This document shows, piece by piece, positions 5,271 to 24,970 of a DNA stretch of 64,000 bases; within the stretch, counting starts at the first letter, position 1; every line of letters begins with the position of its first letter. Source of the DNA: a virus; IMG/VR virus record IMGVR_UViG_3300021138_000017, positions 12,595 through 76,594 of that record; one strand, written 5' to 3'. The position numbers and the translations under genes were made by a program. Below the pieces are notes generated by a model. The model was not told where the DNA came from. It searched no databases and saw only the letters and a list, made by a program, of their open reading frames with translations.

Positions 5271-5276
5271 AGTAGT

Positions 5277-5522
5277 ATGCGTACTATTAATTTCCACAGT
5301 TTTACTATGTCAGATGTAGAAGATCCTGAACTATATGCCGCGGTACCTTTAAGTAAATTTATGGATACTGATTTAGGTAAATGGATCAAAGCTAACTGCT
5401 TAGATCCTAGATATAGTGTTCGTCCTGATGTAAATTCCTATGGATATCGTGTGATTGTGTATGGCGAGGTTGAAGATATCTCTGCTACAGAATTTTATTT
5501 AAAGTTTCATAATGTTCAATAA
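5277..5522 (+). CDS. small phage protein, F-x-L-K-F family
   Basis: DVEDPELYAA…GKW…; ends ATEFYLKF. Confidence 0.75.
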   Translation: MRTINFHSFTMSDVEDPELYAAVPLSKFMDTDLGKWIKANCLDPRYSVRPDVNSYGYRVIVYGEVEDISATEFYLKFHNVQ

Positions 5523-5733
5523 ACCCTTAGACTTTTATTTAAAATGGTCAGCTAGTTTTGTAGCGTTACTACACGTTTATTTGGTAGCACACGACGTAAC
5601 TCCATATTATAAATTTTCCGGATTAACTGCCGCAATACTATGGGTATGGATCAGCATTTTATGGCGAGAACCCAGTTTAATATTATTAAATTTAATAATG
5701 ATTGGCATTTATATTAAAGGCTTACTGTTTTGA
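5512..5733 (+). CDS. small membrane protein (about 3 TM helices)
   Basis: Hydrophobic 73-aa ORF, coupled on both sides. Confidence 0.7.
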   Translation: MFNKPLDFYLKWSASFVALLHVYLVAHDVTPYYKFSGLTAAILWVWISILWREPSLILLNLIMIGIYIKGLLF

Positions 5734-6683
5734 AAATATTAGTTACTGGTGGATTAGGTTTCATAGGACACAATGTTGTTCGTGAGCTTGAAAATTTAAA
5801 TCATAATGTGTCTATAATAGATAACAAAACAGACTACGGGTTTATATCAAAGCAGGAATTAGATTACATAATGTTTGAACGCTTTTGTAGAATAAAAACC
5901 CGTGATATAAATTACAATGACATAGAAAAATTACACGTTGATTATATGTTTAAAAATGTTGACGTAGTTGTACATTTAGCCAGCTTTCCCAGACAAAGTA
6001 TAGTCAATCAAAATCCTATGGCAGGTAGTAGAGTAATGAGTGAAGGGCTATTACGGTTGTTAGAATTATCTGTAAAAAATAATGTTAAAAAGTTTGTGTA
6101 TGTTAGTAGCAGTATGGTATATGGTAATTTCATCTCTACTGAAATAGATGGTATTAATGAAGACACCGATTGTTATCCTATCGGACCATATGCTATTATG
6201 AAATTAACAGGAGAATGGTTAGTTAAAGATTACACACGTAGATTTGGCATTACTCACACAATTATACGTCCAAGTGCTGTGTATGGTCCGTATGATATCG
6301 AAAATAGAGTTGTAAGTAAATTCTTAAGTAATGCTATGCGAGGAAACGAACTTGTTGTTAAAGGTATCAATGATGAACTTGATTTTACATTTGTAGATGA
6401 TGCAGCTATGGGTATTGCTTTAGCTGCCACAAGCAATAATACTGACAATACCATATACAACATTACAAAATGTCAAAGTCGAACACTTCTAGAAGCCGCA
6501 GAATTAGCAATTAAAATAGCAGGCAAAGGTTCAATACGTGTAGAATCAAGGGACGATAATTTTCCTCGTCGAGGGCAATTAAATATTGTTCGTGCCAGGA
6601 AGGATTTTGGATATCATCCTACTGTAACAATAGAGGAAGGATTTCAAACATACTATGACTGGCTTAAGAAAATCAATCACTGA
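5730..6683 (+). CDS. NAD-dependent nucleotide-sugar epimerase/dehydratase (extended SDR)
   Basis: ILVTGGLGFIG, VVHLA, SSSMVYG, YxxxK (YAIMK), DFTFVDD. Confidence 0.9.
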   Translation: MKILVTGGLGFIGHNVVRELENLNHNVSIIDNKTDYGFISKQELDYIMFERFCRIKTRDINYNDIEKLHVDYMFKNVDVVVHLASFPRQSIVNQNPMAGSRVMSEGLLRLLELSVKNNVKKFVYVSSSMVYGNFISTEIDGINEDTDCYPIGPYAIMKLTGEWLVKDYTRRFGITHTIIRPSAVYGPYDIENRVVSKFLSNAMRGNELVVKGINDELDFTFVDDAAMGIALAATSNNTDNTIYNITKCQSRTLLEAAELAIKIAGKGSIRVESRDDNFPRRGQLNIVRARKDFGYHPTVTIEEGFQTYYDWLKKINH

Positions 6684-7851
6684 TAAAATACATTATATTC
6701 CAACAGAGGAAGTAGAAAAAATAGTATGGAATGGCGATAGTGTTGAATATGATACAGCATTGTATGAATTAGGAAAAAACTACGATGAATTTATTGTTTT
6801 AAATCCAGCATTTTCCTTTTTGACACTAAAAGAAGAATTGCCTATCACTGCAGTAGTGGATAGTTGTATTACTTGGAAATATCAGGATTCATGGGTAGGA
6901 AAATATTTTACAAAAAACTGGATCAACGAAAAACAATACCACGAAGTAAATCTAAATCTTATATGTAAAAAAAATGCCGCTTTTAAAAATATAAAGTTTA
7001 ATGACATTGCTGTTACTGATTTATATAATTTAAAATATCAAATGGTGTGGTACTTAGACAACAAATTTACAGAAGAAAAAATTTGGGTATACAAGTGCTA
7101 TTTAGAAAATATAGAAACAAAAGGAACTAAATACATGGGATCCATAAGTCCTATAGACAGGTCAGCAAAAACCCCGGATGTTGTTTTTATCAGTTACAAT
7201 GAAGTAAACGCCGAAGAGAATTGGCTACGTGTTTTAACTAAAGCACCCAATGCTAAACGTGTAAATGGTATCAAAGGTATTGTAAATGCCCATAAACAAG
7301 CTGCTGAACTATCTTCTACAGATATGTTTTATGTTGTCGATGGAGATGCTTACTTAACCGATGACTTCAATTTTGATTTTCAACCTGATATATTTAATAG
7401 AGAATGTGTTTATGTTTGGACTAGTCAAAATCCCATTAACAATTTAACCTATGGGTACGGCGGGGTAAAACTATTACCAAAAGATTTAGTACTTAAAGTA
7501 AACCAGTCTACAATAGACATGACTACAAATATAAGTCGCAAGTTTAAAATTTTTAATCAAGTAAGTAACATTACTAGATTTAACACAGATGAATTTAACA
7601 CATTTCGTAGTGCGTTTAGAGAGTGTGCTAAGTTATCTTCTAGAATATTTTTACAAGAAGACTATTTAAAAAATAAAGAAAGATTAACAGTTTGGTGTAC
7701 AGAAGGTTTTGATAAACCCTATGGTGAATGGGCTATCAAAGGAGCTTTAGCTGGCAAAAAATACGGTGAAGAAAATATCAATAATCCCGACAGTATTAGA
7801 CTAATTAATAGTTTAGAATTTATAAAATTAAAATTTGAAGAGTTAATGTGA
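6655..7851 (+). CDS. GT-A-fold glycosyltransferase-like protein with N-terminal extra domain
   Basis: VVFISYNE…RVNGIKG..NAHK.AA…FYVVDGD (DxD), YGYGG, FRSAFRE; paralog of 21665..22600. Confidence 0.7.
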   Translation: MTGLRKSITDKIHYIPTEEVEKIVWNGDSVEYDTALYELGKNYDEFIVLNPAFSFLTLKEELPITAVVDSCITWKYQDSWVGKYFTKNWINEKQYHEVNLNLICKKNAAFKNIKFNDIAVTDLYNLKYQMVWYLDNKFTEEKIWVYKCYLENIETKGTKYMGSISPIDRSAKTPDVVFISYNEVNAEENWLRVLTKAPNAKRVNGIKGIVNAHKQAAELSSTDMFYVVDGDAYLTDDFNFDFQPDIFNRECVYVWTSQNPINNLTYGYGGVKLLPKDLVLKVNQSTIDMTTNISRKFKIFNQVSNITRFNTDEFNTFRSAFRECAKLSSRIFLQEDYLKNKERLTVWCTEGFDKPYGEWAIKGALAGKKYGEENINNPDSIRLINSLEFIKLKFEELM

Positions 7852-8723
7852 TTAAAAAAATTATATACATCCTAGCATTTATTTTACCTTCGCTTACTTT
7901 AGCAGAAAATATAACAATTATTGTTCCGTTTTCTGCTGGGGGAGCGTTTGATATTATGGCAAGAAAAGTTGACTCTTTTCTACATAAGTTAAATTACGAA
8001 ACAGTTGTAGTAGATATACCCGGAGCAGGTGGAGCTGTGGGTGTTACTAAATTACTTAATAGTCCGCCAAATACTTTGATGTTAACTAGCCCTTCAATTT
8101 ATGTTGTAATGATTGAAAAAAATTTAGCATTGGATAATTTTAAAATAATATCAATTATGGGAGAAGTTCCGCAAATTTTAGCTGTACGCAAAGATCGCAA
8201 TTTAACTTGCGAAAAATTAAAAAACGATGATAAGACTTATTTTTTAGGGTCAGCTGGCAAGGATAGTCAAACATCTGTTCCTGTTTATTTTATCACAGAA
8301 AAGTATAAACACTTTATCGAAGTTCCATATAAAGGAGCTAATCTTGCTTTATTGGATGTATTATCTGGACAAATAGATGGTGTTTTTCTTAATGGATATA
8401 GTAATCAATATAAAGAAATTGAATTTATAGCAAATAGTTCTCAAAAAGAATTTGATGGCATACCTTCACTGGAAAAATGTTTTGGAATTAAAAAATCTTT
8501 TGTAGGAGAATACCTACTGATAGCTAGTCCTAACAGCGATGAAAAGTTTATCAAAAACATGAATCAAATGATGATAAACTTTGCTAATAGCGATGAAGGT
8601 CAAACCTACTATAAACAAGTAGGAATAAAAAATACAGTTTCAGATTTAGCATCTACAACCAAAACTTTTAAAAATTCATATAATCTATGGAAACAAATTT
8701 TAAAAAACAGGTACGAAAAATGA
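7848..8723 (+). CDS. Bug/TctC-family periplasmic solute-binding protein
   Basis: Signal peptide; IIVPFSAGGAFDIMAR, PGAGGAVG, VPYKG…DVLSGQID. Confidence 0.85.
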   Translation: MIKKIIYILAFILPSLTLAENITIIVPFSAGGAFDIMARKVDSFLHKLNYETVVVDIPGAGGAVGVTKLLNSPPNTLMLTSPSIYVVMIEKNLALDNFKIISIMGEVPQILAVRKDRNLTCEKLKNDDKTYFLGSAGKDSQTSVPVYFITEKYKHFIEVPYKGANLALLDVLSGQIDGVFLNGYSNQYKEIEFIANSSQKEFDGIPSLEKCFGIKKSFVGEYLLIASPNSDEKFIKNMNQMMINFANSDEGQTYYKQVGIKNTVSDLASTTKTFKNSYNLWKQILKNRYEK

Positions 8724-8753
8724 ATTTAAAGTATAAGACTAACTAGATCATAC

Positions 8754-8774
8754 TAAATATTACATTATAGGAGA
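8754..8774 (+). promoter_or_regulatory. putative late promoter TAAATA + strong SD AGGAGA
   Basis: Directly upstream of ATG 8783. Confidence 0.6.
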
Positions 8775-8782
8775 ATAGCAAA

Positions 8783-9091
8783 ATGCCAGTTAAAGCAACC
8801 ATAACATCAGTTAAACCTTCAGGAGCACAATGGTTTTCAGACGTATCTGCCGAAAATGCCGCAATAGGAAAAAGTAATGTAGACTGGTCAAAAGAACAAC
8901 CAGGATTTATCAGCGTAACAACCACAAATCCTGATGAGAATACAAGAATTATAGAATATACGTTTGATACTGTAGAAAATTATACAGCATGGTTACAGGC
9001 AAGAAGTAATTTATCATCTTTTAAAACAGTTGCCGAATACCACACTAATAATAATTTTGTTACTGTTAGACACGAAACAATTAATCAATAA
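8783..9091 (+). CDS. small dimeric alpha/beta-barrel (ABM-like) protein
   Basis: QPGFIS and 'IIEYTFDTVENYTAW' pattern typical of ABM-fold proteins; strong RBS. Confidence 0.5.
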   Translation: MPVKATITSVKPSGAQWFSDVSAENAAIGKSNVDWSKEQPGFISVTTTNPDENTRIIEYTFDTVENYTAWLQARSNLSSFKTVAEYHTNNNFVTVRHETINQ

Positions 9092-9116
9092 ATCTATTGT
9101 ATAGCCCTAAGTAAAT

Positions 9117-9124
9117 TATAAATA
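9117..9124 (+). promoter_or_regulatory. T4-late consensus TATAAATA
   Basis: Exact match in the intergenic region before 9153. Confidence 0.6.
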
Positions 9125-9152
9125 TGAACATGATTACCAGGTTCATAAAATA

Positions 9153-10394
9153 ATGTTTTTTTCTGAAGATCCAGAATTCACTAAACACGGCTACTATCAA
9201 ATTAACGATGTAAAAACTTTGAGTAAGTTTGAAGCTTATCAATTATCGGGAAAAGATTGGAGTAAAATTAAATTTATTTTCAACGATGAAATTTATGATC
9301 AATACGATTGGACCGTTGAACCAGAAGAAGATATTTATGATTTATATTGCCAAAGAGCCCAGCAATTAAGAGAAAAATATGACTATCTTGTTTTAATGTA
9401 TAGCGGAGGAGTTGATAGTCATACCGTATTAGAAACTTTTTTATTCAATAATATCAAATTAGACGAAGTATGTACTTTTTCTACGTCTGATTTTACTAAA
9501 AAATATGACAAATTAAATCAAGAAGTTTTTAATTCGGCTATACCTTTTATCAACACATTAAATTTACATCAATTAGGTATAAATTTTAGAACGGTAGAGA
9601 TAGGTCAATTAATCATAGACCAATGGGATGATGAATTCCATTTTGAAAATTTTCAATTTTACGCCAACAGTGCTCAATGGATTACTGTTTCTAGATCACA
9701 TCAATTTAAATCTAAGATTAAAGAACACATGGATTTAATTGAAAAAGGAAAAACAGTTTGTTATATTTGGGGAGCAGATAAACCTAGTATACATATACAA
9801 GATAATCAATATGTTTTTACAGTCAACGACGCTAGTATAGATTTTGGCACCAGGCAGTATGTTACTAGATCAATAATGAAAGATAATTTCTTTAATTTTT
9901 ATGATGAAGCATTTTATATATCAAAAGATGCTCCAAAAATTTCTATTAAACAATCTCATTTATTAGTAAAATTAATGAAAACTATTCCTATAAGTGATTC
10001 TAGATTACGGAAAAAAACAGAATTATCAAGTACAGGACCATTTGTTATTCATCACAAAATACAAAACATTCCTATTTATCTAAGTAAAAAGACAGTAGAT
10101 GGTGCTATATATCCAAAAGCAATATTGAGTAACTTTGGAGATGATAAATTATATAACTCTAGTTTAATACTTTCTCCCAAAGATAATTGGTTTTCTTTAT
10201 CTAATCACTCCAATCGTTGGAAATTTGAACAAAAAGTAAAAAATTTAATAAATGAAAATAGAAATTATTACAAATACGATCATTACGCTCCTAATTATAG
10301 ACTTTTTAAACAGGAAGAATATAAAAATATTATTCCAAATCATGCCATGTATTTTTTTAGCAAATACCATGTGATTGGAGATATTGTACAGTAA
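9153..10394 (+). CDS. PP-loop (adenine nucleotide alpha-hydrolase / Asn-synthetase-C-like) enzyme, type A1
   Basis: LVLMYSGGVDS; no glutaminase domain; paralog of 13320..14528. Confidence 0.75.
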   Translation: MFFSEDPEFTKHGYYQINDVKTLSKFEAYQLSGKDWSKIKFIFNDEIYDQYDWTVEPEEDIYDLYCQRAQQLREKYDYLVLMYSGGVDSHTVLETFLFNNIKLDEVCTFSTSDFTKKYDKLNQEVFNSAIPFINTLNLHQLGINFRTVEIGQLIIDQWDDEFHFENFQFYANSAQWITVSRSHQFKSKIKEHMDLIEKGKTVCYIWGADKPSIHIQDNQYVFTVNDASIDFGTRQYVTRSIMKDNFFNFYDEAFYISKDAPKISIKQSHLLVKLMKTIPISDSRLRKKTELSSTGPFVIHHKIQNIPIYLSKKTVDGAIYPKAILSNFGDDKLYNSSLILSPKDNWFSLSNHSNRWKFEQKVKNLINENRNYYKYDHYAPNYRLFKQEEYKNIIPNHAMYFFSKYHVIGDIVQ

Positions 10395-11494
10395 TGAATA
10401 TAGTTATTTTAGATCCCCAAACTACTCATACCGATTTTATAGCTCAAAGTTTAGCAAAATATCATACTGTGTTTACTGAAATAGAAAACATAAACGTTAA
10501 AACTGATCTTGTAATTCCCTTATTACACAACTACCAAATGCGTTTAAAATTTAGAGCTTGGATCAATAAATTGAAAATTCCTTGCTTAATGCCAAGTCTT
10601 GAAAATTCTTATCTTGAATGGAGTAAAATTAAATCTAAACAACTTTTACTAGAATTGGGAATACCAACTCCTTCTTATAAAATATATACCACAGAAGATC
10701 TTTTAGTAAATTTTTATAATATTCCTAGACCGTTTGTATTAAAGTATGAACAAGATTTTAGGTTTGGGCTACAAACTATTATTATTACTGATGAAAACTA
10801 TAAAGAAGAATATGAAAAATTAATAGCTAATGGATTAGAAAGAATAGAAATAATGAAATACAAAGGTCCATTTGTTAATTTGTTTATTGTAGAAGAATAT
10901 ATAAATGGTGAAGAGGAAATATCATACCATGCTCTTTGTAATGAACATCAGTGGTCTTATTTAGGCTCTGCTAGAGATTACAAACGTAGATATGAAAATG
11001 ATATAGGATACAACACAGACGGTATGGGGTCATATTCTATAGGAAATAATTATCCAATCATTGACCAATATGCCAATTCTATTATACAACACTTGAAATC
11101 ACAAGGCAACCCGTATATGGGATTTTTTTATCTAGGAATAATTATTTCAAATGGTGTTCCATTTGTATTAGAGATAAATACAAGACCCGGCTGTCCAGAA
11201 ATACAATCTATTCTTCCAACTATAGATAACGAATTAGGAGATTTATTTTTATCGGTAGCAACCAATAAACCATTTGATATAAAGTTTAATGATAAAAAAG
11301 CAGTAACAGTCCTTGTTCAAGGAAAATTAAAAAACAAACCAATAGATTTAATTTGTGGTTGTTCAAAAACTAGAGACGAGTTTACACTAACCGCTATAGA
11401 CACTACGATAACAAATGCTAGCGACAAAATTTACAATTATTTAAAATTGCTTGATAACTGCGAGTATAGAAAAGATATAGGATACCTTAAATAA
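10394..11494 (+). CDS. divergent PurD (GAR synthetase)-like ATP-grasp ligase
   Basis: LEWSK..SK..L…GIPT, IVEEY..GEE.S, DYKR…G.NT.GMG.YS, VLEIN.RPG.PE.Q. Confidence 0.8.
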   Translation: MNIVILDPQTTHTDFIAQSLAKYHTVFTEIENINVKTDLVIPLLHNYQMRLKFRAWINKLKIPCLMPSLENSYLEWSKIKSKQLLLELGIPTPSYKIYTTEDLLVNFYNIPRPFVLKYEQDFRFGLQTIIITDENYKEEYEKLIANGLERIEIMKYKGPFVNLFIVEEYINGEEEISYHALCNEHQWSYLGSARDYKRRYENDIGYNTDGMGSYSIGNNYPIIDQYANSIIQHLKSQGNPYMGFFYLGIIISNGVPFVLEINTRPGCPEIQSILPTIDNELGDLFLSVATNKPFDIKFNDKKAVTVLVQGKLKNKPIDLICGCSKTRDEFTLTAIDTTITNASDKIYNYLKLLDNCEYRKDIGYLK

Positions 11495-11555
11495 AAACTA
11501 ACTACTATATGAATCAAGTTATAACTTATTTGAAATTAACGGAATTATTTTAAAA

Positions 11556-12398
11556 ATGATTTTTAAAAACTATGCTGAAATTTTAGCCCACTATACTTCG
11601 GTAAAAAAAGGAAATTATGTTACTCCTGATTATATACTGAATAAACACAGCGATGGTATAAATTTATTTCGTAGATATTGTCCACATAGAATGTATCCTT
11701 TGGCCGATGTAGGCAATACAGTAGAAAATATTGTGTGTAAATTCCACGGATTTGAGTGGGACAAAAATGGATCTCCGGTTAACAATGATCGTAAGATAAG
11801 TTGCGGTAAAGCAAAAATTGGAAAATCTGGATTAATATTTAAAAATTTTGTTGAACCAGATCACTACTGGGTAGATGATTTAGCAAAAGAAACTAATTTA
11901 GAGTATAGCCATATTGAAACAGGTAAAAGTAACGGAAGTTGGCTATGGGCAATGGATATACAATCTGACCTGTTACATATTCGCAAAGGTGATGATGTTG
12001 TTCACCCAGGATTGTCTGCTGTTACTAATTTAGACGAATGCGAAATGGAACAAGGAGAAGGATGGATATTACAAACTTGTTCTACCGGCTGGTGGCTTTT
12101 TATATATCCATATGCTTACGTTGAATGGAGTCCAGGCTGTTTAGCAATTAATAATCTCATACCAGATAATCCAGCAAGCGAATTTAAATTTGAATGGATA
12201 ACACAGTATTATTATGACCCATCTGTGTCTTTGGAAAAACGCAAAGAATTTGAAACTTTAGAAGATGTGTTTAAAGAAGACATAGCTACCATTGAGTTAC
12301 AAAAAGGTAAATATTTTCCTTTAGCCAAATCTACATGTAGATTAGAAGAACACTCTGTTTACTTTGGCGAGTGGGTAACTAAAAATCGCAGGGATTAA
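11556..12398 (+). CDS. compact Rieske non-heme iron oxygenase (alpha-subunit-like)
   Basis: Rieske CPH…CKFHG; mononuclear Fe motif DLLH…VH; C-terminal VFKED..IE.Q. Confidence 0.8.
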   Translation: MIFKNYAEILAHYTSVKKGNYVTPDYILNKHSDGINLFRRYCPHRMYPLADVGNTVENIVCKFHGFEWDKNGSPVNNDRKISCGKAKIGKSGLIFKNFVEPDHYWVDDLAKETNLEYSHIETGKSNGSWLWAMDIQSDLLHIRKGDDVVHPGLSAVTNLDECEMEQGEGWILQTCSTGWWLFIYPYAYVEWSPGCLAINNLIPDNPASEFKFEWITQYYYDPSVSLEKRKEFETLEDVFKEDIATIELQKGKYFPLAKSTCRLEEHSVYFGEWVTKNRRD

Positions 12399-12401
12399 AT
12401 T

Positions 12402-13316
12402 ATGATAAGACACAATAATTGGATGTCATATAGCTTTGATGATGGATCAATAAATGGGGCCAAACCTAATATGTATTCAACATTCAAACTTCATTTCAAA
12501 AAGGGACTAAAATATAAAACTATGTCTTACTATGATGCTTTATACTATAATGCTAGTGTAATGCGTGATGAGTTTTCGGAACCTTTTGATGTATTGCTAT
12601 CAGGCGGAATTGATAGTGAAGTTGTTGTGAGAGTTTTTAAAGATTTAGGCATTAAACAAAATGTTTTTACTATTAGATTTGAAAATGATCATAATATACA
12701 AGATGTAGAAGCTGCCAAGAAAATTTGCGATAATATAGGTGTTGACTTAAAAATCATTGACTGGAATCTACAAAAGTTTTTTGAAAATGATGTTCAGGTA
12801 ATGTTTGATAAAACATTTTGCCCTTATGTTGGAAGAATGTTACGGCATGCTTGGTTTGATTTACTTGACAATATTCCAGTTATGGCCGAGGGAGAACCGT
12901 ATTGGAGACGAGAGCTACTTGAAGATTATACACAAAAGTCTGAATGGAAACTATGGTGGAGAGAAGATTATTTTACTGCCTCTATATACGGCAATACTGT
13001 AGGCAGAACCGTTATCACTGAATGGTACAATTATACTCCTGAAATAGTAATGAATTATCATCATTTACCTTTAGCCAAACAGTTGCTCAATGATGAATTT
13101 AAAGGAAAAATTAGTTGTTGGAGTAGTAGAATACCTATACATCAACACTTATGGCCTGATATATTACAAAGACCTAAAATGTACGGGTACGAAGGACCAA
13201 ATCAACCTGGGTACTGGCCCGAGTTTATTAGAACATTTGCCAATAATGTGTCACTCAAAGCATCTAACGAACTGTATAAATTTTCTGTATCTGAATTAGA
13301 AAACATCTTTAACTAA
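12402..13316 (+). CDS. PP-loop enzyme, type B1
   Basis: VLLSGGIDSE; paralog of 15947..16873 (EW..YTPE). Confidence 0.75.
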   Translation: MIRHNNWMSYSFDDGSINGAKPNMYSTFKLHFKKGLKYKTMSYYDALYYNASVMRDEFSEPFDVLLSGGIDSEVVVRVFKDLGIKQNVFTIRFENDHNIQDVEAAKKICDNIGVDLKIIDWNLQKFFENDVQVMFDKTFCPYVGRMLRHAWFDLLDNIPVMAEGEPYWRRELLEDYTQKSEWKLWWREDYFTASIYGNTVGRTVITEWYNYTPEIVMNYHHLPLAKQLLNDEFKGKISCWSSRIPIHQHLWPDILQRPKMYGYEGPNQPGYWPEFIRTFANNVSLKASNELYKFSVSELENIFN

Positions 13317-13319
13317 ATT

Positions 13320-14528
13320 ATGTTTTTTGAAAACGATATTGACTTTGTCAAATTTGGATACTATCAAGTTGATAATATAAAAACTTTTAGCAAGTTTGAA
13401 GCTTATCAATTTGCTAAAGGAGACATGAGTAAAATTCAATTTATATTTAATGACGATATTATGTCTCAATATGATTGGACGATAGAGCCCGAAAAAGATA
13501 TTTACGAACTGTACGCTGAAAGGGCTAGACAAATACGTAACAAATATGACTATCTAGTATTATTGTACAGCGGCGGTATAGATAGCCACACAGTATTAAA
13601 ATCATTTTTAGACAATAATATACACCTAGATGAAATTTTTACATTTACTAATGCCAAAGTAGAATCAACAACAGGTAAATTTAATCAAGAAGTTTTTAAT
13701 GCCGCTATTCCATTTGTAAGTTCTCTTAATCTTGTCAAACTGGGAACCAAGTTTAGACTATTTGATATTAGCGATTTAATTATTAATATGTATCAAGACG
13801 ATTTTGTCGTTGAAAATTATCATTTGTATAATCAAGGTCCTGCCAATAACTGGACTAGCGCCATAAGATCTCATGTACTTAAATCTAAAGTAGAAGATCA
13901 TTTAAAATTAACAGAACAAGGCAAAACTGTTTGTTATATATGGGGTTTTGATAAACCCTTTTTACGATTCGATAATAATAAATATTCTATTTCTTTTATA
14001 GATGCTTGTATTGATTTAAATATGAGACAATTTATAAACAAAAAAACGTTTATATCTAAATTCGCAAACTTTTTCGATGAAGCATTTTACACCTGCCGAG
14101 AATTTCCAGAAATATCTATTAAACAAGGTCATTTGCTATTGAAATTAATTAAAACCATCAAACCTACTGATAAAATATTACGATTTAAAGAAGAAATTCC
14201 AACTATTGGACCATTTGTAATACATCATTACAAAGAACAGTATAAATTTTTACCAAAAAATCTAGTCGATGCCGCAATTTATCCAGAGGCAAATTTACTA
14301 CAATTTGGCGATGATAAAACTAAAGGTAGTATTATTATTCCGCAAAAAGATAAATGGTTCACTAGTTCTAATCATGATAATCAAAAAAGATGGTTTCAAA
14401 ATTTTAATAATTTAATAAAACAAAATAAAAACTTTTATGTATTTCGAAACAATGAAGTTATGAATATAAAGAGCATTTTTAGTAAACAGTATTGTATAGG
14501 TGAATACAATCCTTTTGAGAATACCTAA
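13320..14528 (+). CDS. PP-loop enzyme, type A2
   Basis: LVLLYSGGIDS; end-to-end similarity with 9153..10394. Confidence 0.75.
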   Translation: MFFENDIDFVKFGYYQVDNIKTFSKFEAYQFAKGDMSKIQFIFNDDIMSQYDWTIEPEKDIYELYAERARQIRNKYDYLVLLYSGGIDSHTVLKSFLDNNIHLDEIFTFTNAKVESTTGKFNQEVFNAAIPFVSSLNLVKLGTKFRLFDISDLIINMYQDDFVVENYHLYNQGPANNWTSAIRSHVLKSKVEDHLKLTEQGKTVCYIWGFDKPFLRFDNNKYSISFIDACIDLNMRQFINKKTFISKFANFFDEAFYTCREFPEISIKQGHLLLKLIKTIKPTDKILRFKEEIPTIGPFVIHHYKEQYKFLPKNLVDAAIYPEANLLQFGDDKTKGSIIIPQKDKWFTSSNHDNQKRWFQNFNNLIKQNKNFYVFRNNEVMNIKSIFSKQYCIGEYNPFENT

Positions 14529-14530
14529 GA

Positions 14531-15109
14531 TTATTCAATAAGCATAAAACTTTTCATATTGCTTTTCCACACTGACTCACCTTTATTAGTTAAGTAATGC
14601 GTCATTACCAATTGCTTACAACTCTCGGGTACAGGATATAATGACCCGCAGACATTATATCTAGTTGACTCCATAGCAAAGTCTGTGTTAGTATTAATTT
14701 TAATTAACTTTAGGTACTCTGTAAAGCCTCGCAAATTATATTCTCTGCTGATAAACACACAATCTAACTTTTTTATTTTTGCCATAGCCAACTGAAATGG
14801 TAAACAGTATGTAGTGTTTAAAAATTTATCTCCTCCACTAAACTTACCAGAATGGCGATAGTCTGGATGTATCCACATTCTAGTACTACATCTACCGATA
14901 CCTTTTCCCCATCGTTCTTCGTTTATTTCCAAGGCACTGAAGCAGACAATTTTGTCATCAATAGTTACCACTGGAAAAGATGCGTAGTTTCTAGGGTTTA
15001 GATTGATGTAATTGTTTTTTAATTTATCTTTAGAATTTTCAATGTAGTCTTGACAATTATTCCATAAATCTTGGTCGAAACTACTAGCATAATCAACTAT
15101 TTTAATCAT
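14531..15109 (-). CDS. GNAT-fold acyltransferase-like protein (start revised to ATG 15109)
   Basis: KIVCFSAL…GRCSTRMWIHPDYR (GNAT motif A-like), CVFISRE. Confidence 0.6.
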   Translation of the reverse strand: MIKIVDYASSFDQDLWNNCQDYIENSKDKLKNNYINLNPRNYASFPVVTIDDKIVCFSALEINEERWGKGIGRCSTRMWIHPDYRHSGKFSGGDKFLNTTYCLPFQLAMAKIKKLDCVFISREYNLRGFTEYLKLIKINTNTDFAMESTRYNVCGSLYPVPESCKQLVMTHYLTNKGESVWKSNMKSFMLIE

Positions 15110-15135
15110 TGTTTGATATTTACTTAAATATTTAA
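15110..15135. promoter_or_regulatory. 26-bp divergent promoter region with TAAATA on both strands
   Basis: Plus-strand TAAATA 15125-15130 then ATG 15136; minus-strand TAAATA 15122-15117 then ATG 15109; palindrome TTAAATATTTAA. Confidence 0.6.
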
Positions 15136-15966
15136 ATGCAAAAAATAAATTCATTCCTTTACTACATACTGTATCCTGTCCATCTAATTGCGTGGATAGG
15201 ATTAGCAGTTTATCTCACATTTTTTAATTTTACATTTATAAACTTAATAGAACTAACAATTGGTTGGATTTTAATCGAAGGATTAGGAGTAGCGGTTATA
15301 CTACATCGTTATGTAAGCCATCGATCAGTAGAAATAAAACCCATACTCAAACCTGTGTTATTATGGTTAAGTTGTTTAAGCCTACAAGGCAGTCCGCTAG
15401 GTTGGGCGGCAGTACATAGAGGAAGTCATCATAGATACAGCGATACTGAAAAAGACGCACATTCTCCATCTAAAGGAAAATTGTATGCTTGGCATACATG
15501 GCTACATGATTGGGATAGATATTTCAATCCAAAATATGTCATTGACTTAATTAAAGATCCTATTCATTTATGGTTTGCTAAACACTATAACTGGGTGATA
15601 TTTTTCACTTATGCTGTAGTTGGTGTAATTTCTTGGCAGTTACTTTTATTTGGGTTTATAATTCCGGCAGCTATCAGTTTGTATATGGAAAGTAATATTA
15701 ATGTTTTTTGTCATACCCCAGGACAAGGATACAGAAATTTTGATACTAAAGATAATAGTCAAAATGTTCCATTGCTTGCTTGGATTACCTGGGGACAGGG
15801 GTGGCACAATAATCATCATGCTAAAGCTAGTTCATACGATTTTGGAACTTCAGTTAGTGGCAAACCATACGAATGGGATTTTAGTTTAATATTTTTACCA
15901 TTAATTGCTACAAAAGAAAGTAGACAAGCCATTTTAAACAATAGAAATGCTGTTCACTCACAATAA
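15136..15966 (+). CDS. membrane fatty-acid (delta-9-type) desaturase
   Basis: Three His boxes LHRYVSH, HRGSHH, WHNNHH; TM segments; D.HSP. Confidence 0.9.
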   Translation: MQKINSFLYYILYPVHLIAWIGLAVYLTFFNFTFINLIELTIGWILIEGLGVAVILHRYVSHRSVEIKPILKPVLLWLSCLSLQGSPLGWAAVHRGSHHRYSDTEKDAHSPSKGKLYAWHTWLHDWDRYFNPKYVIDLIKDPIHLWFAKHYNWVIFFTYAVVGVISWQLLLFGFIIPAAISLYMESNINVFCHTPGQGYRNFDTKDNSQNVPLLAWITWGQGWHNNHHAKASSYDFGTSVSGKPYEWDFSLIFLPLIATKESRQAILNNRNAVHSQ

Positions 15967-16873
15967 TCATTTAACCTATAGCGTAGGAAACAAAGAATAT
16001 GGCTATAGAGATAATTCTGTTGAACGGTATTCTGTAAATTTAGGGCAAGTTGATTTAGATAGATATTCTAAAAGCTCTTATGCAAATGAATTACATAGAA
16101 CAGCAAAATTAGTAAATCAAGATTTAGGAAATGATCTAGTGCTGTTTTTATCAGGCGGAACTGACAGTGAAATAGTTTTACGTAATTTTGTTCATAATGG
16201 TTTCAAACCCAGATGTATTGTTCTCAAGTTTGAAAATAACTACAATATAACCGAAGTTAAAGAAGCACATGAAATCGCGCAGGCGCTTGACGTAAAATTA
16301 GAAACTGTTGACTTTAATGTACATGAATTTTTTTATTCAGGAGAAGCTATAGAGTTCGGGGAACAAATACAGTGTACTCAACTTACGTATCTTATGATTT
16401 ATAATAGTATTTTAAAATTAGGTACTCCTGCGGTTATGGGAGGAGAAGCCTTATTAACACGCTATGTTAATCAGACTGATAGCTATTGGTATTATACGTT
16501 TAGAGAAAACGAGGATGCCAGTGCCATACGTTTTTCTAATAAATTTAATATACCGTTAGTTAATGAGTGGTTCAGTTACACTCCTGAACTCTTACTATAT
16601 TATTTAGAACATCCTAGTATAAAAAGACTAGTTTCAGAAAAATATAATTACAAAATAACTTCTGTTAGCAGTAAAAACTCTATACTAAATGAATTGTATC
16701 CTGGTACTAGAACAAAAAATAAAAAACACGGATTTGAAAGTTTATTGGCATTTAATAATCTAGCTTACGAAGATATTGGTAAAAATCAAATACCACGATT
16801 AGAATTTAGCTTGGATGGAATACCCTATAGTCAAGCAATACTAAACTTAAAAGGTTTCTATGAAAGTTGTTGA
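15947..16873 (+). CDS. PP-loop enzyme, type B2
   Basis: LFLSGGTDSE; paralog of 12402..13316. Confidence 0.75.
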   Translation: MLFTHNNHLTYSVGNKEYGYRDNSVERYSVNLGQVDLDRYSKSSYANELHRTAKLVNQDLGNDLVLFLSGGTDSEIVLRNFVHNGFKPRCIVLKFENNYNITEVKEAHEIAQALDVKLETVDFNVHEFFYSGEAIEFGEQIQCTQLTYLMIYNSILKLGTPAVMGGEALLTRYVNQTDSYWYYTFRENEDASAIRFSNKFNIPLVNEWFSYTPELLLYYLEHPSIKRLVSEKYNYKITSVSSKNSILNELYPGTRTKNKKHGFESLLAFNNLAYEDIGKNQIPRLEFSLDGIPYSQAILNLKGFYESC

Positions 16874-17429
16874 ACTAACTAACGAACACGAGGTTTCTAT
16901 TAGACACTTGTTTAACAAAAATCAATCTGTATTCGATGATCAAAACAGTGCTGAATTTTTAGAATACAAAATATTTTTAGAAACATATTTGTCAAATTTA
17001 TCTAGATATAAAGCATTTGGTTTAGAAGATAGCAGTGGTATGCTATTAGGTTTGATATCTTTTTATATTAGCCATAACGAACCAGTTTGGTATATTACTA
17101 CACTTCGTTCAACAAATAATAAAATCATTGGACCTATCTTAATAGAAGCTGTTATAAAATATAATGAAGAATACGGTAGGTATAGATTTTATACATTGTT
17201 GCCAACAAAATACAGTAAATTTTTAAGAAAATTTGTATTCAGCAAAAATATCAAAGAAAGATATGAGTACATTGATGAATGTTTAGTGCCAGCAAAAACT
17301 AAGTGTATCTATCAAAATTTTTGGAATATACTTTTCAACAGAACGTTGTCTCTTGAAGACAATATAGTTAGATGTACATATCTAAAACAAGAATATAGAA
17401 AAAATATACCTATTGGTGGGAATTTATAA
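16860..17429 (+). CDS. probable GNAT-fold protein
   Basis: MKVVELT…YKAFGL…LLGLISF…WYI…IG..LIEAVIKY; weak motif-level call. Confidence 0.45.
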   Translation: MKVVELTNEHEVSIRHLFNKNQSVFDDQNSAEFLEYKIFLETYLSNLSRYKAFGLEDSSGMLLGLISFYISHNEPVWYITTLRSTNNKIIGPILIEAVIKYNEEYGRYRFYTLLPTKYSKFLRKFVFSKNIKERYEYIDECLVPAKTKCIYQNFWNILFNRTLSLEDNIVRCTYLKQEYRKNIPIGGNL

Positions 17430-18031
17430 TGATGGTAAGCCCGTACAAATTATTTGAATCTACGTTGAATTGCTATAAAATCAATAGTAATGAGGAATTA
17501 GGCAACACCTTACGCGAGTTTTTTAATCAACCAACAAACGACTATCTTTGGAAATTATCAACTCATAGACAAACAGTTACCCACGCCTTAAGGAATACAG
17601 AAACAATACATTTGAGACACTTGGAACATTTTCCTAAAAACTTTGATACACTACAACTAAATCAACTTATGGAAGTAAAACAATCTCTACTAGCGGAAAT
17701 AGCTGTATTTAAAAAAGCTGTAAATTGGTTTGAAGAAGTTTTAATGAACACAGGCGCAAACACAGTAGAATTAGGTAGGATTTTTATTAGCAAGTTGTCT
17801 CCAAATTCTAAAGTTGATCTTCATACGGATGAAGGAAATTATTTTAGCTATTATGACAGATTTCATTTTACAGTTACTGCCGCTGTAGATAATATATTTT
17901 CTATACAAGACAAAAACTATACTTTAGAACAAGACTCTTTATACTGGGTTAACAATCATGTTCCGCATTGGTTAGAAAATAAAAGTAAATTTGGTAGAAT
18001 AAATTTTATTGTAGACGCTAGACTATCATGA
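17429..18031 (+). CDS. 2OG-Fe(II) oxygenase, Asp/Asn/Pro beta-hydroxylase family
   Basis: L.P…HTD…RFH…W.NN..PH..EN….RI..IVD. Confidence 0.85.
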   Translation: MMVSPYKLFESTLNCYKINSNEELGNTLREFFNQPTNDYLWKLSTHRQTVTHALRNTETIHLRHLEHFPKNFDTLQLNQLMEVKQSLLAEIAVFKKAVNWFEEVLMNTGANTVELGRIFISKLSPNSKVDLHTDEGNYFSYYDRFHFTVTAAVDNIFSIQDKNYTLEQDSLYWVNNHVPHWLENKSKFGRINFIVDARLS

Positions 18032-18912
18032 ACATTGAAAATATATATGATACATGGGGATCTATAATTTATTTAGATTCGCCAGAAGAATTTTTTACTA
18101 TGGACAAAGATTATTGGAGAAATTTAATATATGCCCGTAAACTTATAATTTTTAAAAAAGTAAACTTTACAAAAACACAATACGCTGAATTTAGTTTTCA
18201 CTTTGGAAGTCCTTGGAAAATAGAAGACTATCGATATTCTAAAGAATGGGCAGAAATTGTAAACACCAAATATGGTAATCAAATTATCAGTCCTTTCAGT
18301 AACGAACTTATTAAAAAAATACCTCCAGAGTTTATGCCTTGGCATGCTGATATACCAAATAGACAGTTCAACCCTTTTCCTTTTAGAAGTTTATGGATAA
18401 CCAGTAATCCAAATCCTGACAATTCAGGTCAAACTATATGGATGAATTTAGAAGAATCATTTGACTATCTTACAGATGAAATGAAGGAACTAATACCTAA
18501 AGTTACAGTAGTACAGCAAAGTTGGTATGAGCCAGGAAAAGATATACAAGAATTTCCTTTAATAAAAATTCATCCTATTACCAAAACAAAATCTTTACGA
18601 TTAAATCATTATAATTGGGGGTTAAACAAATCTGCTTGGATAATTGATGTAAAGATAAACAATGTTTCTCAAAAAAATTGTGCTCTTATTAAAGAGTATC
18701 TAGACTACCTGGAAAGAATAAACAAATTAAAATACCAACATCGTTGGGATTTATATGACATAGCACTGTATGATAATTATTCGTTCGTTCACGCTAGAAC
18801 TGCTTTAAACTTTGACAACAATAATAGCATAAGACATTTTTATAGAATCAATATAGATCATCTCGATGATAAAGAATGGCATAATCATAAAACCCAATAT
18901 TTTAATTTATAA
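18028..18912 (+). CDS. TauD/TfdA-family 2OG-Fe(II) dioxygenase
   Basis: LIIFK, WHAD, G.T.W, PLI..HP.T…L, W…D…DN….H.R. Confidence 0.85.
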   Translation: MNIENIYDTWGSIIYLDSPEEFFTMDKDYWRNLIYARKLIIFKKVNFTKTQYAEFSFHFGSPWKIEDYRYSKEWAEIVNTKYGNQIISPFSNELIKKIPPEFMPWHADIPNRQFNPFPFRSLWITSNPNPDNSGQTIWMNLEESFDYLTDEMKELIPKVTVVQQSWYEPGKDIQEFPLIKIHPITKTKSLRLNHYNWGLNKSAWIIDVKINNVSQKNCALIKEYLDYLERINKLKYQHRWDLYDIALYDNYSFVHARTALNFDNNNSIRHFYRINIDHLDDKEWHNHKTQYFNL

Positions 18913-18914
18913 AT

Positions 18915-20168
18915 ATGTCTATGCTAAAAAAAGTAATACCAATTAGTTCTACCGTCTGTGCTGTTCCTTGGATGCATCTTAATTTTGAACCTAGTGGTAA
19001 AGTAATTACTTGTTGTCTCACTAGTAGTTTTCAAGCACACTTGGGCGACTTAAAGTCGCAGTCAATTGAAGAAATTTGGAATAGTGATAAACAAAAATCT
19101 ATACGCAAGGATATGATAGAAGGTAAGGAACCTGGAGTATGTTCTAAGTGCTTTGACAGAGAACGAGTCACAGGAGAAAGTGGTAGGGTTTATCATAACA
19201 GAGATTTTCCTGAAGTAATAGAGTCTATACCCGATATTACCTTAGAAGATGGTACGTGTACAACAATGGATTTAAAATACTGGGATTTTAGATTTAGTAA
19301 TATTTGTAACTTCAAATGCCGTAGTTGTGGTCCAAGATACAGTAGTGCTTGGGTACCTGATGCTAAAAAATTAGGATATACTGATCAAGAAAAAGTTTGG
19401 ACAATAGATAATATTGATGATAAAACTAACTATGATTTTCTCGAAGATCAAATTGACACAGTAAAAAGAATTTATTTTGCCGGAGGCGAACCGTTACTAA
19501 TGCCTGAACATTGGCAAATACTAGATATGCTCGTTGAAAAGAAAAGATTTGATGTTAAACTTTCTTACAACACTAATTGTTCGGTGTTAGAATATAATAA
19601 AAAAAATATCATTGATTATTGGAGCCAGTGGCAATCTGGTAAGTTAGAAATTTGGCCCAGTATTGACGAAATTGGAGAAAGAGCAGAACTCATTCGTTCT
19701 GGAACAGTATGGTCTACTGTAGATAGCAATCTTAAAAAATTAGTTCTTATAGAAAAAGCTCTTATACGTCCTCATATTACAGTAGCGGCATGGAATGTTC
19801 ATAGACTTCCTGAAATTATTGAGTATTTTATTAGTGTAGGTGTCATAAGCGAAAAATGGCGTTATCAAAATTTTTACTTAAATTTACTAGAATATCCACA
19901 ATATTATAATGTGCAAATACTATCAGACGAATTTAAAAAAGCTACTATAACTAAACTACAGTCCTTTATTGAAGATTATAATAAAAAATATAATGTTGAC
20001 ATAAACTATTTGTTTAAATATACTCTACATGAATTAGAAAAACCACACAATGAATCTCTAGCTAGAAAATTCCTAAGTATGACAAACAGTATAGACATTG
20101 TAAGAAACGAAAAATTACTCGATGTAGTAACAGAATTACAACACTTAAAAGACCAATATGAAAATTAA
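18915..20168 (+). CDS. radical SAM enzyme with N-terminal SPASM/twitch-like Cys domain (start probably ATG 18921)
   Basis: C..PW…CC…C..C; CNFKCRSC; FAGGEP; TATAAATA at 18908-18915. Confidence 0.9.
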   Translation: MSMLKKVIPISSTVCAVPWMHLNFEPSGKVITCCLTSSFQAHLGDLKSQSIEEIWNSDKQKSIRKDMIEGKEPGVCSKCFDRERVTGESGRVYHNRDFPEVIESIPDITLEDGTCTTMDLKYWDFRFSNICNFKCRSCGPRYSSAWVPDAKKLGYTDQEKVWTIDNIDDKTNYDFLEDQIDTVKRIYFAGGEPLLMPEHWQILDMLVEKKRFDVKLSYNTNCSVLEYNKKNIIDYWSQWQSGKLEIWPSIDEIGERAELIRSGTVWSTVDSNLKKLVLIEKALIRPHITVAAWNVHRLPEIIEYFISVGVISEKWRYQNFYLNLLEYPQYYNVQILSDEFKKATITKLQSFIEDYNKKYNVDINYLFKYTLHELEKPHNESLARKFLSMTNSIDIVRNEKLLDVVTELQHLKDQYEN

Positions 20169-21129
20169 TAAAATTTTTAGAGATTTATCTAGACCCAGCT
20201 ATTTTTGTGTAGACTGGATGCTACACGATCGTTGTACTTACGACTGTAGCTATTGTCCACCGAGTAACAAAAGTGGAACTGATAGTTGGCTGACTTTAGA
20301 CACACTAGATGAATTTTGCGATGGATTAGATCGTCATGTTCAAACTGTCAATCCTGATATGCAAATACACATAATATTCTCAGGAGGTGAGCCCACTGTA
20401 TGGCGTGATTTCAGTGAGCTAGTAGATAGAATGGCAGCTAGAAGGTGGGCTATGAGTTTGAACAGTAATGGATCAAGAAGCCTTAGATGGTGGCAGGAAA
20501 ATGCTCATAAATTTGTAAAAATATATTTAAGTTATCACACAGAACAAGTTAATGATGAAGATTTTTTAGAAAAAGTAAAAGTTTGTGAAGAACACACAGT
20601 TGTAGGAGTAAACGTAATGATGAATCCTGATCCTGAACGATTCGAACAAGCTATAAGATTTACAGAAAGATTGCGTACAGAAACTGAAAAATGCCACTAT
20701 GCCCATCACCAAATACAATATAACTTTGGTAATACTGAAATAAAAGTTCCGCAATATACAGAAGAACAAAAACTTACTATTCTTAACTTAAAACACAGAT
20801 GGACTCCTAAATATAATTTATCAAAATATGACAGTAATCATATGATGGAATATGAGGATGGAACTAAAAGTCATTTCAATGGATTACAATTAATAAAAAC
20901 TAATCAAGCTAATTTCCAAGGTTGGGAATGTGCAGCAGGACTAGAGGGTATTTGGATTAGTGCTAGAGGAGAAATTATGCGTGGTACTTGCCACGTTAGT
21001 GGCCTTTTAGGTAATATACTTGAACCTGACAAAATTCAATGGCCTACCGAAACTGTTACTTGTCCGTATGCGTGGTGTGGCTGTTTGCCTGACATGTTAA
21101 ATACAAAAACTCGTCCTCAAAATGTTTAA
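20158..21129 (+). CDS. radical SAM enzyme with C-terminal Cys cluster
   Basis: CTYDCSYC; SGGEPT; SNGSR; C-terminal CAAG…C…CPYAWCGC. Confidence 0.9.
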   Translation: MKINKIFRDLSRPSYFCVDWMLHDRCTYDCSYCPPSNKSGTDSWLTLDTLDEFCDGLDRHVQTVNPDMQIHIIFSGGEPTVWRDFSELVDRMAARRWAMSLNSNGSRSLRWWQENAHKFVKIYLSYHTEQVNDEDFLEKVKVCEEHTVVGVNVMMNPDPERFEQAIRFTERLRTETEKCHYAHHQIQYNFGNTEIKVPQYTEEQKLTILNLKHRWTPKYNLSKYDSNHMMEYEDGTKSHFNGLQLIKTNQANFQGWECAAGLEGIWISARGEIMRGTCHVSGLLGNILEPDKIQWPTETVTCPYAWCGCLPDMLNTKTRPQNV

Positions 21130-21664
21130 CCAAGACGCTTTCAGCAATGGACAAATAGACAGTAAACTATGGTTATGTAGAGAATTAGAATCCTTAGAAT
21201 GGTCTAGTGATTATACTCAAATATATGGCGGATGGTATGGGGTTCTTGCTTTTTTACTACTAAGTCGAGAAAAATTTTGTGTAGGTCGTATTGAAAGTTT
21301 TGATATAGACCCTACTTGTGAACATATAGCCGACATGATTAATGAAAACTGGGTAATAAAGGAATGGCGATTTAAAGCGTTTACTTTAGACTGTAGTAAA
21401 GGTGTTAGAGGTAATCCTGACTTAATAATTAATACCAGTAGCGAACATTTTAACAATACAGAATGGTTTGATAATATTAGACCAGGAACTCGTGTTATTA
21501 TACAAGGAAACAATATGCCGCACGAGGATCATTTTGTACATACCAATACTCTGGAAGATTTTGTTAGGCAGTATCCTTTGTCAGAAATAGCGTATAAAGG
21601 ATCTTTAGAATTTAAATACCCTGATTGGATTTTTACAAGATTTATGCTGATTGGTACAAAATAA
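21122..21664 (+). CDS. class I SAM-methyltransferase-like protein
   Basis: GGWYG, SFDIDP, LIINTSSEH Rossmann-like motifs. Confidence 0.6.
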   Translation: MFNQDAFSNGQIDSKLWLCRELESLEWSSDYTQIYGGWYGVLAFLLLSREKFCVGRIESFDIDPTCEHIADMINENWVIKEWRFKAFTLDCSKGVRGNPDLIINTSSEHFNNTEWFDNIRPGTRVIIQGNNMPHEDHFVHTNTLEDFVRQYPLSEIAYKGSLEFKYPDWIFTRFMLIGTK

Positions 21665-24964: not shown

Positions 24965-24970
24965 ACTGTT

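Follow-up and report, generated by a model that had tools for sequence, protein, structure and literature searches.

Two conserved virus-specific modules of putative carboxylate-activating enzymes in an accessory island of a freshwater myophage

What does a block of sixteen tightly packed enzyme genes do in an uncultured freshwater myophage, and do these genes form one system at all? The block lies at positions 7848-21664 of the window, a 64,000-nt stretch that comprises bases 12595-76594 of the 76.6-kb IMG/VR record IMGVR_UViG_3300021138_000017 (CheckV completeness ~22%), and an earlier note, made from the letters and their open reading frames, had proposed it as a late-expressed biosynthetic or modification cluster. 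The comparison with relatives reported here reveals that the island is pieced together from at least two conserved, virus-specific modules and is not one 16-gene pathway. As delimited from sequence, module 1 consists of genes H, I, J and K, usually together with L and M (14531-18912), and module 2 of genes A, C, D, E, F and G (7848-14528), while N, O, P, the GT-A-like (glycosyltransferase-like) genes and an epimerase gene are variable companions. The reading we favour, tentatively and with a confidence that stays somewhat short of even, is an accessory island with late promoters in which the two modules activate carboxylates and form amides.

Fifteen of the sixteen genes are encoded on the plus strand and one, H, on the minus strand; most overlap or abut, and from I through P each gene does so with the next. 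Inspection of the open reading frames, combined with Pfam, NCBIfam and fold searches, bore out both the packing and the named gene content. With family calls made at the curated Pfam and NCBIfam cut-offs, the TctC, ATP-grasp, Rieske, desaturase, Asp/Asn-hydroxylase and TauD assignments, the Asn_synthase/QueC PP-loop matches of F and both radical SAM assignments reach or exceed the respective cut-off, and the SGGxDS motif that had been ascribed to four enzymes is indeed seen in C, F, G and J. F and J have ~305 amino acids (family PP300); C and G (family PP400) start with MFF, have 402-413 amino acids and carry no N-terminal Cys or Ntn glutaminase domain. SGGxDS is invariant in the alignments of the PP-loop families, and the fold was confirmed by a model for G. 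The genes of module 1 are as follows.

14531-15109, minus strand: H, GNAT-like protein; start revised to an internal Met by alignment with relatives
15136-15966, plus strand: I, membrane desaturase of the acyl-CoA (SCD1) type; Pfam FA_desaturase PF00487, 54 bits
15947-16873, plus strand: J, PP300, predicted J-type PP-loop adenylating enzyme; overlaps I by 20 nt and K by 14 nt
16860-17429, plus strand: K, GNAT-fold acyltransferase, nearest to polyamine N-acetyltransferases; AlphaFold2 model with pLDDT 87
17429-18031, plus strand: L, cupin oxygenase of the AspH/LpxO family; Pfam Asp_Arg_Hydrox PF05118, 29.5 bits
18028-18912, plus strand: M, Fe(II)/2-oxoglutarate oxygenase of the TauD family; Pfam TauD PF02668, 61 bits

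The desaturase I matches SCD1 in the PDB (4ymk, E 8e-9), and the histidines of its three boxes (HRYVSH, HRGSHH and HNNHH) are invariant in the family alignment, as is the HxD...H...R signature of the L family (H132, D134, H180 and R190). The two proteins described as GNAT-like fared differently. K was confirmed as such by its modelled fold, for which Foldseek returned PaiA (1tiq, E 8e-9, probability 1.00; TM 0.57-0.62 for PaiA and SpeG), with no sequence-level match in Pfam or in a PDB profile search. H is supported by a profile match (hhalign 96.8%, E 2.4e-10) to the family of the first gene in the canonical module of other phages, of which it is the counterpart, and this family itself has weak GNAT matches only (PDB profile E 0.03-0.07; Acetyltransf_7 E 1e-3); the Atlas clusters nearest to H are GNAT (score 0.96). 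J scores 21.7 bits against Pfam QueC, just below the 22-bit cut-off. A QueC identity of F and J was rejected, as the matches cover profile positions ~3-67 of 210 and the family alignment shows no invariant Cys cluster such as the C-terminal zinc-binding one of QueC.

That these genes belong together follows from their relatives, for which viral loci were selected by similarity to the window, with some contigs fetched more than once. Anchoring on PP300 gave 175 loci, of which 80 were kept, anchoring on the desaturase gave at least 584, of which 79 were analysed, and anchoring on PP400 gave 148 viral loci in IMG/VR. Among the 80 PP300-anchored loci the desaturase gene is found in 68, K in 55 and the GNAT/carrier gene in 53, and among the 79 desaturase-anchored loci PP300 is found in 73, the H-type GNAT in 72, K in 64 and the AspH-like gene in 61. 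P (30), GT-like genes (25), thyX (20) and M (21) accompany the desaturase less often, and PP400 does so in only 18. The canonical order is GNAT - ACP (acyl carrier protein) - PP300 - K - desaturase. Gene order and overlapping reading frames are kept across 25-80% identity, and another lineage has a recurrent block of two to three GT-like genes, P, AspH, H, J, K, desaturase and thyX. In a tree of PP300 proteins J belongs to a clade of 64 tips (support 0.99), 59 of which adjoin K or a desaturase, and F to a separate clade of 13 tips (support 0.999) that adjoin Rieske or PP400 genes. Random scattering of the genes in relatives is thus not what was found: subsets of them co-occur strongly and in conserved order on viral contigs of 25-80% identity. 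The proposal of one 16-gene system, by contrast, had to be given up, since the closest relatives, L128 and L145 (70-80% identity), retain thyX, the epimerase gene, g02, B, H, I, J, K, O, P and Q and lack A, C-G, L, M and N.

Gene fusions lead to the same grouping. A profile of J searched against 1.84 billion representative proteins retrieved 744 clusters (50% identity) at E <= 1e-10, and among the matches are natural fusions in both orders, GNAT+PP300 (P0328, P0339) and PP300+GNAT (P0358, P0312), as well as fusions of PP300 with a K-family domain. Such fusions point, independently of gene neighbourhood, to a joint action of the PP-loop enzyme and the GNATs. Tandem PP300-PP300 fusions of ~660 amino acids were also seen (P0299, P0305), and a frequent neighbour family of ~371 amino acids (e.g. 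L101:14528-15643) bears a PP-loop-like motif too.

This linkage bears on the possibility that the island merely collects unlinked auxiliary metabolic genes without a common product, the desaturase tuning membranes, the binding protein aiding uptake and the TauD and Rieske enzymes degrading organic sulfur or nitrogen compounds. The mosaic make-up of the island, which varies between close relatives, would agree with such a collection, as would the porin, DctP, SpeD and capsule genes near relatives' loci and the stand-alone desaturase genes known from cyanophages (PMC5776448). However, the order H/J/K/desaturase with its overlapping frames persists across the whole range of identity given above, GNAT and PP300 are fused, and the PP400, PP300 and K families are nearly confined to viruses, unlike auxiliary genes derived from hosts, so that we consider an unlinked collection improbable. 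The cyanophage genes also encode membrane fatty-acid desaturase homologues, but these are described as stand-alone and host-like (PMC5776448), whereas the desaturase gene of module 1 sits in an operon with genes for a PP-loop enzyme and two GNATs.

Which reaction sequence could such an operon encode? In relatives the ACP is a protein of 72-81 amino acids encoded between GNAT and PP300, with the motif LGLDSLDxVELQ (20 distinct sequences); it is present in 15 of the 79 desaturase-anchored loci and in 23 PP-loop-anchored loci, and its fused form matches Pfam PP-binding. In the reading that we favour, the J-type PP-loop enzyme would adenylate a carboxylic acid, probably of the fatty type, and in many relatives the acyl group would be handed to the dedicated ACP. 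The SCD1-like desaturase and the AspH-like and TauD-like oxygenases would tailor the chain, which the two GNATs would then transfer to an amine acceptor, yielding an N-acyl amide. Since GT-A-like proteins, P and the epimerase accompany module 1 in several lineages, this acceptor is most likely an amino sugar, a glycan or the head group of a glycolipid, belonging either to the virion or to the envelope of the host. OlsB-type N-acyltransferases move an acyl chain from acyl-ACP to an amine, and the AspH-family hydroxylases OlsC and LpxO hydroxylate acyl chains. The PP-loop and desaturase genes of module 1 are not part of these aminolipid and lipid A tailoring pathways, and the likeness implies no orthology to OlsB, OlsA or LpxO.

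The closest parallel in gene logic is provided by bacterial alkyne and polyyne cassettes, which combine a ligase, an ACP and a membrane desaturase, as in JamABC (bioRxiv 10.1101/291195), the polyyne "desaturase triad" (PMC9828172) and likewise TtuABC. The canonical module 1 operon similarly encodes an adenylate-forming enzyme, a small ACP and an enzyme of the FA_desaturase family, and in both the acid would be activated, tethered and desaturated while tethered. By contrast, the activating enzyme of module 1 is of the PP-loop (AsnB/QueC) superfamily and not an ANL-family fatty acyl-AMP/ACP ligase; indeed, Pfam detected no AMP-binding/ANL domain among the cluster proteins. Module 1 furthermore has two integral GNATs, has neither polyketide synthase, nonribosomal peptide synthetase nor thioesterase, and is virus-specific. 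The copy in the window is without an ACP, and the likeness is one of gene logic only.

Module 2, which holds both PP400 genes, comprises the following genes.

7848-8723, plus strand: A, Sec-exported TctC/Bug-like solute-binding protein; Pfam TctC PF03401, 27.0 bits
9153-10394, plus strand: C, PP400, predicted PP-loop adenylating enzyme of AsnB fold, paralogue of G (52% identity); no glutaminase domain
10394-11494, plus strand: D, PurD-like ATP-grasp ligase; GARS_A, 78.5 bits
11556-12398, plus strand: E, Rieske [2Fe-2S] oxygenase-like protein; Pfam Rieske, 33 bits
12402-13316, plus strand: F, PP300, F-type PP-loop enzyme; Pfam Asn_synthase and QueC, PP-loop region only
13320-14528, plus strand: G, PP400, predicted PP-loop adenylating enzyme of AsnB fold; AlphaFold2 model with pLDDT 90

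C and G match no Pfam or NCBIfam family, and a PDB profile search with PP400 gave no hit but LarE (E 0.15). The best alignments of the G model, however, are to members of the asparagine synthetase B group, with Z 10.7 over 291 residues for AsnB (1ct9), Z 10.1 for beta-lactam synthetase (1jgt) and Z 8.6 for carbapenam synthetase (1q15), whereas a Foldseek search of the same model against the PDB matched a PP-loop core of ~150 residues only. Enzymes of this group (AsnB/ASNS, beta-lactam and carbapenam synthetases, TsnB9) adenylate a carboxylate and then form an amide. PP400 shares with them the fold of the synthetase domain (Z 8.6-10.7 over 272-291 residues) and the SGGxDS motif, but differs in the missing N-terminal Cys/Ntn glutaminase domain, in the lack of any sequence match in Pfam, NCBIfam or the PDB, and in often adjoining an exported binding protein. 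D is not a PurD equivalog, as it scores 126 bits against TIGR00877 (purD; cut-off 288) over positions 87-338 of 425 only, and it is present in only ~4 related loci. E was found in 14 loci, all of which have PP400 and PP300 genes as well.

The exported binding protein A scores exactly at the TctC cut-off of 27 and covers profile positions 2-271 of 274, and all 29 listed homologues have signal peptides. In the fetched loci, 46 of the 70 TctC-like genes have a PP400 gene no more than 300 bp away, and in some loci this pairing occurs twice. For a viral scan anchored on TctC itself, the wide alignment contained no usable conserved stretch, and a narrower one returned 10 loci, 8 of which were already known. 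Like the Bug/TctC receptors of tripartite tricarboxylate transporters, A thus has a full-length profile match and a Sec signal peptide; it differs from them in being encoded by a phage, with no TctA or TctB alongside, next to a cytoplasmic PP-loop enzyme and with a score at the Pfam threshold. It had been suggested that the Bug protein recognises an N-acyl-amide product of the cluster. This idea did not hold, as the TctC-like protein is Sec-exported and pairs with the 400-amino-acid PP-loop enzyme and not with the acyl module, so that capture and import of a carboxylate fit better than recognition of a product made in the cytoplasm. The TctC-like protein of module 2 would accordingly bind a periplasmic carboxylate for uptake through a host transporter, PP400, the F-type PP-loop enzyme and the PurD-like ATP-grasp enzyme would amidate or ligate the imported compound, and the Rieske oxygenase would tailor it.

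The surroundings of PP400 change with distance from the window. Closer relatives have Sec-exported TctC-like neighbours and also PP300, Rieske, SpeD and desaturase genes, and more distant PP400 genes are followed downstream by genes for a DUF2061 protein and an N_Twi radical SAM protein. Around PP400 in distant phages are also found genes for Porin_2 (of alphaproteobacterial type), GT8-like, Capsule_synth, SpeD (S-adenosylmethionine decarboxylase), DUF2061 and cytidylyltransferase proteins, which give these islands an envelope or polyamine flavour (L020:8589-9980; L025:5971-9192; L048:8034-8549). DctP-family (TRAP) binding proteins adjoin PP400 genes at L039:12212-13159, L003:6447-7391 and 13 other loci; these are without the signal peptides that the TctC-like proteins have and are cytoplasmic proteins of solute-binding fold.

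Among the remaining genes, N, O and P would serve as variable tailoring genes, and B lies between the first two genes of module 2.

8783-9091, plus strand: B, small conserved protein, possibly ABM/ferredoxin-like; present in 10 loci
18915-20168, plus strand: N, radical SAM enzyme with N-terminal twitch/SPASM-like domain; NCBIfam N_Twi_rSAM NF033640, 359 bits (cut-off 170)
20158-21129, plus strand: O, radical SAM enzyme; Pfam Radical_SAM PF04055, 36.8 bits
21122-21664, plus strand: P, conserved protein of 180 amino acids; present in the 30 desaturase-anchored loci counted above

N and O contain the CxxxCxxC motifs CNFKCRSC and CTYDCSYC, respectively; O scores 62 bits against the STM4011 family, below cut-off, and relatives of N lie ~550 bp downstream of PP400 in ~24 distant loci. 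The labels "ABM-like" for B and "methyltransferase-like" for P stayed unconfirmed, as their PDB profile matches are non-significant (B to ActVA-Orf6, E 0.09; P, E 0.3). With twitch/SPASM radical SAM, ATP-grasp and AsnB-like (lasso-cyclase-like) enzymes and hydroxylases, the island holds enzyme classes typical of pathways for ribosomally synthesised and post-translationally modified peptides, and small open reading frames such as B exist that might encode a precursor to be matured. No precursor was identified, however, B resembles a folded ABM-like domain (through the non-significant match just given), N, O and D are not conserved with either core module, and the carrier protein and desaturase indicate acyl chemistry; a peptide pathway of this kind is therefore very unlikely.

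A further possibility is that the PP-loop (QueC/TilS/TtuA-like), radical SAM, GNAT, methyltransferase-like and GT-like enzymes build, together with ThyX, a hypermodified base of DNA or tRNA. F and J do show weak matches to QueC, MnmA and TtuA, located in the PP-loop region, relatives encode radical SAM enzymes and a QueC-like protein, and thyX directly adjoins the desaturase gene in one lineage. Yet the PP-loop matches are confined to the ATP-binding motif, and J has no conserved Cys cluster for sulfur or zinc. No TGT/DpdA-like, QueD/QueE-grade or hmdU-kinase-like gene was present among the scanned proteins, a membrane desaturase, an ACP and an exported binding protein do not fit, and the promoter type is that of virion genes, all of which makes base hypermodification a quite unlikely explanation. 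NAD salvage by a NadE-like PP300, conversion of Asp to Asn by PP400 and synthesis of a taurine-ornithine lipid were also considered and dropped, as no specific evidence pointed to them.

When would the island be expressed? The elements that bear on this are listed below.

8753-8759, plus strand: CTAAATA late-type motif, 30 nt before B; the site at 33221, before a virion gene, has this form too
9117-9124, plus strand: TATAAATA late-type motif, 36 nt upstream of C
15110-15135, both directions: bidirectional TATTTA-N2-TAAATA element (15117/15125) in the 26-bp spacer between H and I, 4-7 nt from each ATG
24965-25023, minus strand: sigma-70-like TTGACT-N16-TATAAT, between the end of the gene for a Gly-rich fibre of 1959 amino acids and the V..Q operon

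TAAATA motifs like those of the structural operon had been reported at four places in the cluster, and those at 8754, 9117 and 15117/15125 were upheld. The site at 18908-18915, an exact TATAAATA, is doubtful as a promoter of N because its last base is the first base of the ATG of N; unless the true start of N lies further downstream, the motif is not the promoter of this gene. Exact TATAAATA is found at 3 sites in the window against 15.5 expected, and NATAAATA at 15 sites against ~49 expected, a depletion of more than 3-fold. Of these 15 sites, 8-9 lie 7-120 bp upstream of a start on the same strand, among them the starts of baseplate and virion genes (33247, 52214 and 60985) and that of C (9117). 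The TATTTA-N2-TAAATA element between H and I is kept in the window and in 10 relatives while the flanking bases differ, and its distance of 4-7 nt from each ATG suggests near-leaderless transcripts. The claim that no early promoter lies inside the cluster agrees with the absence of sigma-70-like sites from its three intergenic gaps; such sites are not enriched in the region either (124 vs 106 +/- 11). The sigma-70-like site before V..Q suggests that the side of the GT-like Q may use a different promoter class from I-P.

A motif type in common with the baseplate genes would also agree with an island that decorates virion proteins, with cupin, TauD and Rieske enzymes hydroxylating fibre residues (for example of the adjacent Gly/Cys/Pro-rich fibre of 1959 amino acids), GT-A-like enzymes glycosylating them and PP-loop and GNAT enzymes acylating protein amines. 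The fibre gene borders the island and runs in the same direction as Q..V, there are several cupin paralogues, and the AspH family includes protein hydroxylases. Moreover, the protein-modifying QueC-like PP-loop enzyme Cap9 (9nto) is among the structural neighbours of G (Z 6.5). However, the supposed link to Gly-rich fibres was not seen in the relatives, since no large Gly-rich open reading frame stands beside the module in the flanks (6-8 kb) of 159 of them, a result that holds for these flanks and not for the rest of those genomes. The membrane desaturase, the dedicated ACP and the periplasmic binding protein are hard to accommodate. Decoration of virion proteins therefore has a rather low probability.

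In the favoured reading, that of two carboxylate-activating modules, the GT-A-like genes bear on the proposed acceptor. Upstream of the cluster thyX opens a co-directional string of genes that leads into it, and GT-A-like genes flank the cluster on both sides.

4584-5252, plus strand: ThyX, context gene; Pfam Thy1, 148 bits
5730-6683, plus strand: NAD-dependent sugar epimerase/dehydratase; Pfam Epimerase 146 bits, GDP_Man_Dehyd 111 bits
6655-7851, plus strand: g02, GT-A-like paralogue of Q with a DxD-type motif; aligned with Q
21665-22600, minus strand: Q, GT-A-like paralogue of g02; lies beyond the stretch proposed at first and co-occurs with module 1

g02 and Q themselves have no Pfam match and no PDB profile match. 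Among their 120 listed homologues, out of 8000 candidates scored, 4 of the 5 proteins that bear a Pfam domain carry GT2 (PF00535 or PF13641), and a DxD-like motif is conserved in the alignment.

Several observations weigh against the reading of two carboxylate-activating modules. No ACP is encoded in the 76.6 kb of this record or in its closest relatives, and no literature precedent was found for a PP-loop enzyme that loads a carrier protein. A TctC gene adjoins just ~1/4 of the PP400 genes (44/172). The conditional co-occurrence counts were drawn from loci chosen by similarity, in which shared descent inflates synteny. GNAT fold matches at TM ~0.6 do not identify a substrate, and the GT-A label of g02 and Q stems from the GT2 domains of 4 of the 120 listed homologues and the DxD-type motif. 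Finally, a putative sigma-70-like promoter serves the neighbouring V..Q genes, and it is from the motifs alone, by analogy with T4, that we infer late timing of the cluster. A fuller version must be regarded as unlikely: in large aquatic myophages a PP-loop enzyme would replace the ANL ligase of a virus-specific thiotemplate-like pathway and load a phage ACP, the acyl group would be desaturated, hydroxylated and moved by two GNATs to give a late unsaturated N-acyl decoration of a lipid or glycan, and a second PP-loop family with exported carboxylate-binding proteins would supply an imported building block.

How new is the system, and how closely is it bound to viruses? PP400 homologues form 180 clusters at 90% identity, all of them metagenomic; in BFVD the PP400 fold is found in uncultured phages only, and the Atlas clusters nearest to J are 92-96% viral. 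In 185,579 species genomes PP400 had 3 matches, all on short contigs of metagenome-assembled genomes (L008, L009 from a Polynucleobacter and L010 from a Haliscomenobacter assembly; 9-23 kb), which may be binned phage DNA or hint at freshwater hosts. Among 50,697 phage records there was no match to the cluster in megablast, nor in tblastn to G, to a structural protein or to a distant PP400. The PADLOC defence models matched generic cores only, namely PP-loop (QueC) and radical SAM (pVip). Literature searches on phage ACP with desaturase and asparagine synthase, on the N_Twi_rSAM family and on phage TctC genes found nothing relevant, and across these phage records and this literature no characterised pathway matched the cluster, as the earlier note had anticipated. 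The enzyme superfamilies are known, whereas the module, and a PP-loop enzyme in its putative acid-activating role, are not.

The families are thus widespread, with at least 584 desaturase, 175 PP300 and 148 PP400 loci in IMG/VR, and yet absent from the searched cultured phages and nearly absent from cellular genomes. If the proposed chemistry is true, it would add a new route of acid activation to carrier-protein pathways, and it would mean that large phages produce, late in infection, a lipid-like or glycan-decorating molecule of their own; should virions or nucleic acids be what the modules modify, this would carry equal weight for phage-host recognition. For experiments, a well-defined unit of four to five genes takes the place of the unwieldy 16-gene cluster.

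The uncultured freshwater myophage from which the window comes has a baseplate of the T4 type: a gp6-like protein (phrog_10646, 957 bits) is encoded here as well as gp25-like and gp5-like proteins, and the DNA of the window is found repeatedly in lake and other freshwater metagenomes. Positions 4830-17814 are covered by an independent lake-metagenome contig with 4 differences. Three further cupins of ~200 amino acids with the HxD...H...R signature, and another AspH-like gene, are located at record positions 6596-10224, 2.4-6 kb upstream of the window start; the cupins match the AspH-like family (hhalign 85.7%), and with these extra copies the oxygenase-rich island reaches past the window. At 34027-48756 on the minus strand, between the baseplate genes and the fibre region, lies a single open reading frame of 4909 amino acids.

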